Shown one piece after another: positions 2,795 through 53,307 of a stretch of DNA of 55,198 nucleotides (within the stretch, counting starts at the first letter, position 1; each line of letters starts with the position of its first letter). The translations under genes were made by a program, and so were the position numbers. The notes beneath the pieces are model-generated. The model saw only the letters and a list, made by a program, of their open reading frames with translations. It was not told the origin of the DNA and did not search any database. Origin of the DNA: Chthonomonadaceae bacterium (lineage in GTDB: Bacteria > Armatimonadota > Chthonomonadetes > Chthonomonadales > Chthonomonadaceae); the NCBI GenBank assembly GCA_035650735.1, contig DASRGZ010000019.1:1-55198 (forward strand). The letters are read 5' to 3'.

Positions 2795-3130
2795 CAAGAT
2801 TCCAACCGGATGCACAGGATTACTCAGGATTTACAGGATGAAGACACAAGACAGAAGCCTACCAGCTCAGTTGGCTTCTGCTCTCCCTTCTGCCTTGCAG
2901 GGAGAAGGGCCGGGGAGGAGGGGAGATAAAAGAGAACGGAAGTACCTGGCAGTGAAGACCCCTCCCCTCTCCTTCAGAAGGCAGTACGTTGCCTCGGAGT
3001 CTCCCGCCGTCAAGGGCGCGTGAAGACCCCTCCCCTCTCCTTCAGGAGGAGAGGGGCCGAGGGTGAGGCTTGAAGTCAGCAAGAACAGGGCTCGGTTGGT
3101 TGGGTTTTAGGAATCTTGTTCATCCTGTTG
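2795..3130. repeat. Composite intergenic repeat: ~9-nt CAGGAT-type tandem arms enclosing family A palindromes
   Basis: CAGGATTACTCAGGATTTACAGGATG near 2814-2840 is complementary to ATCTTGTTCATCCTGTT near 3113-3129. The interior holds CCCCTCTCC..GGAGAGGGG..GGGTGAGG units. Confidence 0.7.
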
Positions 3131-37497: not shown

Positions 37498-38334
37498 ATG
37501 GAGGCTCCTCCTTCCGCTCCTAGGCCGGAGGTCGGCGCGCGACGCCGCAGACCGCTCAACCTGACGCGAATTAAATCCGGCATCGTCTTCTTTGTGGGGG
37601 CGATCACGGCCGTCGGTAGCGCGCTTACGGGCATCGGGGCGCAGACGGCCTTTGCGCCGATGCTGACCTGGATGCTGGGCTTTACCGCCGAGAAGGCGCA
37701 GGCCACCGCGCTGCGCTATGCCATGCTCACGGCCTTTGCCGCTGCCGTGGGGGCCTATGCGGCGGGAGCGACGCCGGAAGCCTATGTGTCGCGTGCGCTG
37801 CTGCTGGTGATCGGGGCCGTTATTGGGGCGATTCTAGCAGCTCCGATTGGGGTCAGGCCGGGCGTAGCCGCCCAGCGCAAGCAGTTTCTCTCTATCGGGG
37901 TGGCGCTGACGCTGTTTGTCATCGTCCAGACCTCGCATGTCACGCCCTGGGACATTCCTTACTTCGCGGCCTGGAAGGCGTTCTGGCAGTTGGCGCTGCT
38001 GGGCTTTGTGGTGGGCGGATTGACGCAGGTGATGGGGCTGGCAAGCGGCATTCTGATGGTCCCGGCGCTCTACTATCTGGCGGCCTTTTCGCCCATGCAG
38101 GCGGTGGCGCTGACGCAGCTGGTGGTGGCGCTGGCCTCGGTCTTGCCCGCTGCCGCCTATACGCGGCGCGGCCTGGTCGATCCGGTCTACGGCAACTGGG
38201 CGGCGCTGGGCGGCATCCTGGGCGGACTGGGCGGGGGCTTGCTGTTGGCGCACCTCTATCCGAACGTGATCCTCTATCTCTTTGCCCTCTACGGCATGTT
38301 CCTGTGCGCGCGTGAACTGGCAGGCCACGCCTGA
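37498..38334 (+). CDS. TauE/SafE (TSUP) family transporter
   Basis: Two hydrophobic halves with LTGIGA and MGLASGILMVPAL motifs. Confidence 0.8.
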   Translation: MEAPPSAPRPEVGARRRRPLNLTRIKSGIVFFVGAITAVGSALTGIGAQTAFAPMLTWMLGFTAEKAQATALRYAMLTAFAAAVGAYAAGATPEAYVSRALLLVIGAVIGAILAAPIGVRPGVAAQRKQFLSIGVALTLFVIVQTSHVTPWDIPYFAAWKAFWQLALLGFVVGGLTQVMGLASGILMVPALYYLAAFSPMQAVALTQLVVALASVLPAAAYTRRGLVDPVYGNWAALGGILGGLGGGLLLAHLYPNVILYLFALYGMFLCARELAGHA

Positions 38335-38361
38335 GCGCCCTCGCCGCTAAGGTGGAAATAG

Positions 38362-38401
38362 ACCTCACCCCCGGCCCCTCTCCTTCGCAAGGAGAGGGGA
38401 G
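38362..38401. repeat. Family A palindromic element
   Basis: ACCTCACCCCCGGCCCCTCTCCTTCGCAAGGAGAGGGGAG. Confidence 0.8.
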
Positions 38402-38421
38402 AGGCGTTTCCATGCGAGAGG

Positions 38422-38511
38422 GTGCACCCCACGCAGGGAGGGCTGATATGGTGATGGCGCCGCTCCACAACCTCTGGCTCCAGTGCACCCCACGTAGGGA
38501 GGGCTGATATG
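38422..38511 (+). CRISPR. Single-spacer mini-array with divergent type I-E-like repeats
   Basis: GTGCACCCCACG(C/T)AGGGAGGGCTGATATG at 38422-38450 and 38483-38511 (29 nt, one mismatch), separated by a 32-nt spacer. Confidence 0.65.
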
Positions 38512-38557
38512 CAATCGCCGGGCCGAACCGCTTCGTGCCCGGCGATTGCGCTGTTTT
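38511..38557 (+). terminator. Strong hairpin directly after the mini-array
   Basis: 13-bp perfect stem GCAATCGCCGGGC/GCCCGGCGATTGC followed by GCTGTTTT. Confidence 0.5.
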
Positions 38558-38603
38558 GACGCCCGGCAGCGCCGTAGGCCGCTTATTCGGCCCTTTTCCA
38601 GAT

Positions 38604-38632
38604 TTGACAGACATCTATTTAGCGATTATACT
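38604..38632 (+). promoter_or_regulatory. Sigma70-type promoter of ftsY
   Basis: TTGACA-N17-TATACT. Confidence 0.75.
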
Positions 38633-38748
38633 ATACAGGTAGCAGTCCGTATCGCGGCATCCCGTGCGACGACATCCCCGGCGTCGGGCCGGCCGTAACG
38701 GACTCTGCGGCCTCGCGGTACCCGTGCCGCAAGGAGATATTCAAAAGC

Positions 38749-39648
38749 ATGCGATTTGGATTCTTTAAGAAGATCGTCCAGACGGTGGACCAACTGGTGA
38801 CCGGGCGCGGACGGATTGACGAAGAGCTTTTCGAGGAGCTGGAGGCCCAGCTTCTTCAGGCCGATGTCAACGTCCATACCACCCTGGCGGTTTTGCAAGA
38901 CCTGCGCACGGCGGTGCAGGAGGAGCGGATGGCCACCGCCGAGGAGGTTATCGCGCGGCTGAAGTCGAGCCTCCTGGCCGTGCTGGAGAAAGGCGAAGCG
39001 CAGGGCGGAACGGCACTGAAAGTTTCGCCTGCCGAGCCGCCCACGCTCTATCTGATCGTCGGGGTCAACGGCGTGGGCAAGACCACGACCATCGCCAAGC
39101 TGGCCCATAAGCTGCACAAGCAGGGTAAGCGGGTGGTGCTGGCGGCGGGGGATACGTTCCGCGCGGCGGCCATCGATCAACTTGAGATCTGGGCGCGGCG
39201 CACGAATACCGAGATCGTCAAGCATCGCGAGGGCGCCGACCCCTCCGCCGTCGTCTTCGACGCCATCAAAGCCGCACGGGCGCGCGGCGCCGACTACGTC
39301 ATTGCTGATACCGCAGGACGCCTTCATACCCGCGTGAACCTGATGGAGGAGTTGAAGAAGATCTACCGGGTCAGCGAGCGGGAGTTGGGACGCCCGGCGG
39401 ACGAGATCTTGCTGGTGCTGGACGCGACGACAGGGCAGAACGCGATCAGCCAGGCCAAGCAGTTCCTGAACGCCATCCCGATCACGGGGCTGGTGCTGGC
39501 CAAGCTCGACGGCACGGCGCGCGGGGGCATCGTCATTACGCTGGCGGACGAGTTGAAGCTGCCCATCAAGCTGGTCGGCACCGGCGAGAAACCCGATGCG
39601 CTGGAGGAATTTAACCCGGTGGAGTTTGTGGACGGCCTGTTTGCCTGA
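38749..39648 (+). CDS. ftsY: Signal recognition particle receptor FtsY
   Basis: GVNGVGKTTTIAKLA, DTFRAAA, DTAGRLH, DATTGQN and KLDGTARGG motifs. Confidence 0.97.
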   Translation: MRFGFFKKIVQTVDQLVTGRGRIDEELFEELEAQLLQADVNVHTTLAVLQDLRTAVQEERMATAEEVIARLKSSLLAVLEKGEAQGGTALKVSPAEPPTLYLIVGVNGVGKTTTIAKLAHKLHKQGKRVVLAAGDTFRAAAIDQLEIWARRTNTEIVKHREGADPSAVVFDAIKAARARGADYVIADTAGRLHTRVNLMEELKKIYRVSERELGRPADEILLVLDATTGQNAISQAKQFLNAIPITGLVLAKLDGTARGGIVITLADELKLPIKLVGTGEKPDALEEFNPVEFVDGLFA

Positions 39649-39657
39649 GAAAGGACG

Positions 39658-39853
39658 CCCGGCCCTAAAGGACCGGGCTGCGGACGGCAAGCCCGCTAAA
39701 GCGGGCTGCCAGAGGTAGGTGAGCCCCTGAAGGACCCTCTCCAGTAGGAGCGCTTGGGTTATTTTGCCTCTGGTAGAAACCGATCCACCCTGCGTAGCCC
39801 CGTTTACGGGTGGGCTGCCAACAGGCGCCACAGCCGCCCCAGGGAGCGGCTAC
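39658..39853. repeat. Cluster of short GC-rich hairpins (REP-like)
   Basis: CCCGG-CCCTAAAGGA-CCGGG, AGCCCGC-TAAA-GCGGGCT and AGCCGC-CCCAGGGA-GCGGCTAC (GTAG foot on the minus strand). Confidence 0.5.
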
Positions 39854-48154: not shown

Positions 48155-48347
48155 GTTCCGAAAGGATCCTTCCCTAGCTTCGTTTCAACTCCACGCTTTT
48201 CCATTCCACGCTGGTTCGATTAAAGGTCGGAAACTCTTCCATGCGCCAGAAAGAGGATGGTGTCGAGCGCGGATAGAGTTCGGGCAATGGCGCCTTATTT
48301 CCTCCTGGAAATGCCTTCCAGCCAGGATCCTTCCATCTTGCCATGCA

Positions 48348-53100: not shown

Positions 53101-53278
53101 TTAGGGTTCTGGGGTTCTAGAGAGTTCTGTAGGGTTCTAAGGGTGCTGGTTCCCCCGCGCGTGGGGAATAGGGCGCTCTCGGATTGCGGCAACCGTTCGT
53201 TGTTGCTGGTTCCCCCCGCGCGTGGGGAATAGCTCAGAATCTTAGAACCCTACAGAACCTTAGCACCCTAGCACCCTA
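53101..53278. repeat. TAGGGTTCT-type tandem inverted arms enclosing the mini-array
   Basis: TTAGGGTTCTGGGGTTCTAGAGAGTTCTGTAGGGTTCTAAGGGTGCT versus AGAATCTTAGAACCCTACAGAACCTTAGCACCCTAGCACCCTA. Confidence 0.85.
53144..53232 (-). CRISPR. Single-spacer mini-array with type I-E-like repeats
   Basis: Minus strand: CTATTCCCCACGCGCGGGGGGAACCAGCA (29 nt), a 32-nt spacer (53172-53203), then the same repeat lacking one G (28 nt). Confidence 0.7.
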
Positions 53279-53307
53279 CTATTCCCCGCAGGCGCGGGGG
53301 TGAACCG
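53279..53307 (+). CRISPR. Solitary canonical type I-E CRISPR repeat
   Basis: CTATTCCCCGCAGGCGCGGGGGTGAACCG: 29 nt, perfect CCCCGC/GCGGGG stem, 4-nt loop and GTGAACCG 8-nt tail. Confidence 0.75.

Follow-up and report, generated by a model that had tools for sequence, protein, structure and literature searches.

Between a gene of the tauE family and ftsY, in the genome of a member of the Chthonomonadales (labelled G000 below; other G numbers denote relatives), lies a unit in which two 29-nt copies, identical at 28 of 29 positions and 61 nt apart from start to start, flank a unique 32-nt insert (Table 1). The window—that is, the whole stretch of DNA that was analysed, 55,198 nucleotides in length—had earlier been given a sequence-only reading, which reported a 29-32-29 nt unit with a single-base difference between its repeats, a 13-bp hairpin directly after it, and no cas genes in the window. 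All three observations are borne out, the genome's only Cas1 and Cas2 being encoded on contig C93. The nearest named relatives of the FtsY protein (74–85%) belong to the Chthonomonadaceae or Chthonomonadales, phylum Armatimonadota.

The assembly is continuous across the unit: of two independently assembled sequences, a 1306-nt contig of sequencing run X2 covers 38380-39685 without any difference, and a metagenome locus (L144) agrees at all 3022 of 3022 nt, although either may come from the genome's own source sample. No 61-nt skip was seen among the 15 run-contig joints listed, where contigs drop rare variants, and neither the run contigs nor the metagenome locus revealed a strain in which the allele at 38422 is empty.

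The inverted repeat downstream of the unit folds with a z-score of -3.97, and together with its T run it probably marks the end of the tauE transcript; a consensus terminator scan did not call it a terminator. The duplicated 29-nt repeat forms no stable hairpin (plus-strand fold z +0.07 to +0.48; perfect stem of only 3 bp), and an Rfam search gave one chance match only. Compared with an I-E array, the unit has the expected 29/32 (or 28/33) geometry and lacks both a palindromic repeat with a stable stem and cognate cas genes. The single unit itself is probably without function.

Table 1. Features of the window that bear on the unit upstream of ftsY.
Feature	Position	Strand	Remarks
Putative scar elsewhere in the window	2952..3045	.	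lies within a different palindromic repeat; period 68, as in the I-B size class
tauE-family gene, 5' of unit	37498..38334	+	ORF; Pfam PF01925, E 2e-22
Dispersed palindromic (REP-like) element copy, ~100 nt	38350..38450	+	11-bp hairpin at 38375-38399; last 29 nt are the putative integration target
Target duplication, copy 1	38422..38450	+	28 or 29 nt, the last G possibly belonging to the insert; 17/29 versus I-E repeats in register
Insert	38451..38482	+	spacer-sized, 32 nt, or 33 nt with a leading G given a 28-nt duplication; unique in genome, no protospacer found
Target duplication, copy 2	38483..38511	+	one C>T difference from copy 1; nearest other family member differs at 4 positions
Hairpin of 13-17 bp, then short T run	38511..38549	+	arms 38511-38523/38537-38549; single copy in genome
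Sigma-70-like promoter for ftsY, 3' of unit	38604..38632	+	11/12 consensus matches; similar site in G001
ftsY	38749..39648	+	TIGR00064 above cut-off
Two-copy I-E-like unit	53144..53232	-	28/29-nt repeats, 32-nt insert; 21/28 to I-E repeats
Solo I-E-like repeat beyond the two-copy unit	53279-53307	+	I-E-like repeat match

The Repeat as the Tail of a Dispersed Palindromic Element

The sequence-only reading took the unit for an orphan mini-CRISPR with a privately diverged repeat. This description is wrong, because the repeat forms the 3' tail of a palindromic element of about 100 nt that is dispersed in the genome and for which the label REP-like is our own (a literature lead through DUF559 yielded nothing useful). 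The family comprises 38 long copies and about 380 loci with the hairpin core, and its long form was found in G000 only among the 31 genomes searched. In a search that allowed mismatches, the 29-mer recurred elsewhere in the genome, each time behind the same hairpin; the tail is doubled only in the copy upstream of ftsY and is carried once by 37 paralogues, which identifies the unit as a repeat-length duplication of a pre-existing target outside any array. Both copies share variants that are absent from most family members, and the nearest paralogue is 4 positions off, so copy 2 must have arisen at this very site, with copy 1 as its template. Divergence from I-E repeats is thus common to both copies because a single element tail, already in place, gave rise to the two. 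That tail may in turn be derived from an I-E repeat, and such a descent would explain why it was targeted.

At the orthologous site a pre-integration allele is not readable: in G001 different genes occur within the 1.5 kb that precede ftsY, and in other relatives the gap is short and the element is missing. The comparison of tauE-ftsY intervals that the sequence-only reading proposed gave relatives that lack the unit, and no single-repeat allele.

Genome-Wide Occurrence of Spacer-Sized Inserts

The whole genome was scanned for single non-tandem pairs at periods of 30-200, a wider form of the 28-30/31-33/28-30 scan suggested by the sequence-only reading, and about 110 units with a duplicated target and a spacer-sized insert were found. 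The 227 pairs recovered peak at periods 61, 66-68 and 73, and pairs of 24-41 nt number 7.6 per period between 60 and 78, versus 0.37 (30-59) and 0.25 (79-200). Removal of 24 units with a multicopy insert and 10 that fit no class from the 146 with period 60-78 left 112, spread over 85 contigs, about 5-7 of which are expected as background. They fall into a short class (period 60-62; 7 units with copies of 27-31 nt), a middle class (period 64-70; 72 units, copy mode 30 nt, inserts 35-39) and a long class (period 70-78; 33 units, copy mode 36-38 nt). Duplicated sequences of different units are mutually unrelated. Identical copies are fewer in the long class (13/33) than in the middle class (55/72), so the long class looks older.

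By our own gene model, 98 of the 112 units are intergenic, and the empty allele looks coding in 8/112, versus 58% of 2000 random sites. Repeats or hairpins as preferred targets of the whole set were considered and rejected, as 24/112 units lie in repeats versus 22% of random intergenic sites. No convincing target motif emerged in the 30-nt and 37-nt classes; G or C stands at the duplication borders in 39/54 (30-nt) and 28/32 (36-37-nt) cases. Targets of period 61 are more palindromic than the others, with stems of at least 5 bp in 4/8 versus 10/105 (p 0.008).

Some units alter genes. In a glyoxalase gene the unit amounts to a 23-aa in-frame addition that neither of the two aligned orthologues has, and a DUF362 gene is interrupted by 67 nt missing from its G035 orthologue, the sole one aligning across the site. 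Selection favouring in-frame insertions was not seen among the coding insertions, 2/8 of which are in frame. A PT-HINT domain protein (L151:778-2562, on G000:C68) carries a 22-aa in-frame addition in which a 9-residue motif is repeated.

Among the units excluded from the count, some occur in 3-15 near-identical copies within dispersed repeats, as if the host element had spread them (G000:C105:29320 and 14 more; C65:114/C106:32250/C208:1910; C101:3187/C132:25539/C55:31419). Clusters of 2-3 overlapping pairs with periods of 66-73, possibly sites that were hit twice, were seen at G000:C182:48403, C198:74296, C224:43547 and C176:25931.

CRISPR Systems of the Genome and Its Relatives

The only cas locus (on C93, locus L003) encodes an I-B Cas1 (TIGR03641), Cas4, Cas3, Cas5, Cas7, a III-A module and one Cas2. 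The I-E cas genes for which the sequence-only reading advised a search were sought in the full genome in vain: no I-E cas genes, Cascade or Cas6e were found in the assembly, which is 97.6% complete, and when 8 ORFs from the I-E operon of G012 served as tblastn queries, the I-B Cas1 was the only match, and a weak one. I-E Cas1 is present in 13/68 genomes of the class. Within the resident locus, the III-A module (Cas10, Csm2, Csm3, Csm4 and an APE2256-family protein) interrupts the I-B operon, with cas4 on one side and cas1 on the other; its Cas10 match does not cover profile positions 1-230, and the stretch of the locus that was listed shows no Csm5 gene. The Cas1 protein (L003:8250-9428, 392 aa) has an acidic insertion of about 60 aa that splits the Pfam match, as it does in several relatives.

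The three size classes have counterparts among these systems. The resident array (G000:C93:2502-7722) has 80 repeats, each 29 nt long, and most of its spacers measure 36-38 nt; its periods are mainly 65-67, with 61 and 62 occurring once each. Middle-class duplications are mostly 30 nt long, 1 nt above the resident repeat, and 30 nt is also the repeat length in the I-B arrays of G008 and G012, those of G012 with periods of 64-71 and modes of 66-68, as in the middle class; I-B arrays overall range from 65 to 71. The resident repeat measures 29 nt versus 30 nt in relatives, the first C of the relatives' repeat being left in the leader. The I-E array of G012 has period 61 in 80/86 intervals and so corresponds to the short class, and an array of 19 repeats of 37 nt in G001, a member of the same genus, has periods of 70-75 and corresponds to the long class; no Cas1 was found in the G001 assembly, which is 89% complete. 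Insert and period therefore match a CRISPR type available to the lineage in every class (61 for I-E, 64-70 for I-B, 70-78 for the 37-nt type).

Solo repeats are also scattered through G000: 8 are I-B-like, 24 I-E-like and 13, as listed, of the 37-nt type (12 of them at 24-31/37). Those of the three types lie between genes at about 45 sites, including 48196-48225 and 53279-53307 of the window; some follow promoter-like sites or adjoin palindromic elements, and on C89 an I-B-like and a 37-nt-type repeat lie 65 nt apart. I-E-like arrays of 2-4 or more repeats occur without I-E cas genes at G000:C109:6231-6383, C126:9839-10053, C42:25175-25267 and C127:3612-3702.

Origins of the Inserts

For nine of the 112 inserts, a single donor of nearly full length lies elsewhere on the chromosome in unrelated surroundings (7 from the middle class, 2 at period 61-62 and none from the long class). 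CCG or CTG stands at, or 1 nt from, the 5' end in 8/9 of these self donors (chance 0.20 each, p 2e-5, for a motif chosen post hoc). The I-E-like mini-array on C109 includes a spacer with a full chromosomal donor beside AAG, so that donors with a PAM are present for the set as a whole, C(C/T)G in 8/9 and AAG for the C109 spacer; the accessible text of one study gives AAG as the E. coli I-E PAM (10.1101/2023.03.03.530964). Self-derived inserts number 9/112, whereas a full self match was found for 0/79 array spacers (p 0.011). Contig C15, a 43.5-kb chromosomal contig, holds 4/9 self donors and is a possible acquisition hotspot.

End-to-end overlap with spacers of the resident array was found for two inserts, at 17/17 positions (spacer 3) and at 13/13 low-complexity positions (spacer 70), as compared with 0 in 12 control sets. 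The insert with the 17/17 overlap belongs to a long-class unit (35+35); part of the long class may thus have been made by the resident system, which weakens a reading in which three enzymes acted. For the PAM of the resident array, overlapping spacers gave only 2 informative pairs.

For the insert upstream of ftsY, the search against host, phage and plasmid sequences that the sequence-only reading recommended returned neither donor nor PAM: no donor was found in the genome itself, in 67 other class genomes at 3 mismatches, or in viral contigs, and phages and plasmids gave partial matches only (E 0.3 or worse). Its sole metagenome match is the same locus.

Distribution in Relatives and a Possible Role of HU/IHF

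Under the same filter as was applied to relatives, G000 contains about 145 raw units, or 22 per Mb. Two units, both 37+35/36, were found in 374 kb of G001, a small sample that gives a rough rate, and other genera yielded 1 doubtful unit in about 1.5 Mb of sampled sequence rather than whole genomes (G012, 1 in 400 kb; G008, 0 in 285 kb; G015, 0 in 385 kb). No unit was seen in smaller samples of G007, G014, G016, G017, G018 and G025 and in ftsY loci, or in 303 kb of Armatimonadota ftsY loci (partly from the same genomes) and 980 kb from other phyla.

HU/IHF (PF00216) was detected in 1/68 class genomes (G014), with the positive control above cut-off in 9/14, and tblastn with the G014 protein against G000 gave nothing (best E 0.10). 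In E. coli, I-E Cas1 uses IHF. I-E Cas1 is encoded in 13/68 class genomes although HU/IHF was found in G014 only. In vitro, HU suppresses off-target integration by a III-A system, according to the part of that work available to us (PMC13769266). The absence of HU/IHF may be permissive for errors but is no explanation of them. Its loss as a sufficient cause was rejected, since Cas1-positive relatives without an HU match (G008, G012 and G015) show 0-1 units in the samples; the acidic Cas1 insertion of about 60 aa was rejected as a cause likewise, as relatives share it yet show 0-1 units in the samples. Weak selection on intergenic DNA in a repeat-rich genome would be a second candidate cause.

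The Probable Integrase at the ftsY Locus

If the unit arose through Cas1-Cas2, a type I-E integrase probably acted at 38422. The duplication matches I-E repeats (the genome's own and those of the G012 array) at 17/29 positions in register without gaps, and a core of CCCC/GGG/TGA is kept at 10/10 positions, the motif having been chosen post hoc and the pattern occurring at 38 sites genome-wide. A plain identity slide over the empty site places offset +19 (19/29) above the true register (17/29). If the last PAM base is kept during acquisition, the insert in the 28+33 reading is expected to start with G; it does, a weak indication given that G at position 29 is conserved in 31/38 family members. 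The accessible portion of one report describes 61 bp as the I-E increment (PMC11788318). The unit C135:1248 combines 29+32 with a CCG-type donor, so the resident I-B system can also yield period 61. We infer that an I-E integrase (period 61), either lost or unassembled, is the more likely agent than the resident I-B Cas4-Cas1-Cas2 taking up a short spacer.

Probable Off-Target Integration and Alternative Explanations

The unit at 38422-38511 is, as judged from sequence, very probably a neutral scar of off-target spacer integration by Cas1-Cas2, with catalysis at this site as a prediction. The basis is the geometry, the single tails in 37 paralogues, the genome-wide spacer-sized inserts, the PAM-flanked self donors, and the empty orthologues. 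A Cas1-Cas2 complex loaded with a 32-33-bp prespacer would have attacked both strands of the I-E-like element tail about 28-29 bp apart, gap filling by host repair would have duplicated the tail around the insert, and one later substitution would have made the copies distinguishable; the scar would have no present function and would have been kept because it is intergenic. Cas1-Cas2 integration into a repeat-like ectopic site was one of two options in the sequence-only reading, and it is well supported and far more general than was supposed (about 110 units).

Cas-independent rearrangement of a REP/MITE-like element, through partial local duplication or the capture of a fragment during repair, could mimic CRISPR geometry, and here the target does belong to a dispersed family in a repeat-rich genome and the insert has no donor. 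However, the duplication covers only 29 of the 61 nt and the insert is unique; the scars are not enriched in repeats (24/112 versus 22%); and rearrangement, which we consider unlikely, would not predict fixed insert sizes, three CRISPR-matched periods, or PAM-flanked donors. The genome contains small I-E-like arrays and 24 dispersed I-E-like repeat copies, and I-E Cas1 occurs in 13/68 class genomes, as would suit a decayed remnant of a genuine I-E array, but both copies have the sequence of the element family, 37 paralogues carry the same tail once, and syntenic relatives have neither array nor element at the position, which renders this origin very unlikely.

A maintained regulatory guide RNA of the CreA/CreR type, the other option of the sequence-only reading, finds no support and is slightly less probable still. 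The unit lies on the sense strand in the probable 3' UTR of tauE and so may be transcribed; it is nevertheless outside the cas locus, in a genome in which no I-E effector or Cas6e was found, and its repeat does not resemble that of the resident I-B array. At the cas locus the insert matches at 19/32 positions at best, inside genes, PAM-plus-seed matches elsewhere reach at most 18/32, and no promoter complementarity next to a PAM was found. Nor is the unit conserved among relatives, for tauE and ftsY stand together in 16/40 loci, 14 of them with gaps of 64-259 nt, and none of these contains such a unit. An artefact of assembly or library preparation is scarcely credible: the assembly has 224 contigs, and the matching run and metagenome contig may be its source, yet the X2 contig and L144 span the unit unchanged, the copies differ by one base, and the scars avoid coding DNA (8/112 versus 58% of random sites).

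Comparison With Known Systems and Implications

The closest precedent for off-target integration is the 'neo-CRISPR' insertion seen in E. coli when type I-E Cas1-Cas2 is over-produced (Nivala, Shipman and Church 2018; PMC7054753, 10.1101/148544, PMC11788318), as described in the accessible parts of these sources. Both it and the present unit have a spacer-sized insert, a repeat-length duplication of a non-array site, and a 61-bp increment; unlike the E. coli events, those reported here are natural, apparently fixed, distributed over about 110 sites, and of three size classes, for two of which the assembly contains no cas genes. For natural off-target integration, the available text of the E. 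coli study mentions only circumstantial evidence from two other species and leaves the natural frequency open (10.1101/148544). Pyrococcus furiosus Cas1-Cas2 is described, in the part of the report accessible, as carrying out full-site integration in vitro at non-CRISPR sites, with paired sites 30 bp apart and G or C borders (PMC6698737). G/C borders and 30-nt duplications recur here, whereas the present scars are chromosomal and inherited, and their 30-nt class has no clear repeat-like internal motif. The in vitro work on HU fidelity, so far as its accessible text goes, concerns off-target events without HU, and this class is likewise nearly devoid of PF00216 (PMC13769266). CreA/CreR and standalone regulatory mini-arrays, according to the portions of two preprints available, are conserved, belong to cas loci, and pair with the promoters of cas or cargo genes (10.1101/2023.03.10.532045, 10.1101/2023.03.03.530964); the unit resembles them in having two repeat-like copies around one spacer, and differs from what those portions describe in lying outside a cas locus, in not being conserved, and in lacking promoter pairing.

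In a literature search, with most subscription journals outside its reach, we found no report of natural scars on this scale. What is added here is the presence of three CRISPR-matched size classes in one bacterial chromosome, the I-E class without its genes, and of two PAMs read from self donors, with donors shared with the resident array. Off-target integration has been documented mainly by E. coli over-expression and in vitro work; about 110 natural events in one genome give access to ruler lengths, PAMs, and donor bias without an autoimmunity filter, and here an immune enzyme is seen extending two proteins in frame, by 22-23 residues, and causing frameshifts in others. Scars of this kind may also be what CRISPR finders report as single-spacer 'orphan arrays', and with three classes side by side in one host it becomes possible to test which of the two, host or integrase, determines fidelity.

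Tentatively, and with somewhat less than even confidence, the chromosome may be read as a fossil record of three Cas1-Cas2 integrases (I-E, I-B and that of the 37-nt repeat) acting as genome-wide mutators in a class largely without HU/IHF. If so, the scars would keep the ruler length, PAM, and unfiltered intake, including self DNA, of vanished systems; they would lengthen or break host genes, and dispersed solo repeats would seed new arrays that acquire spacers. Low fidelity would then be a property of the host and not of one enzyme.
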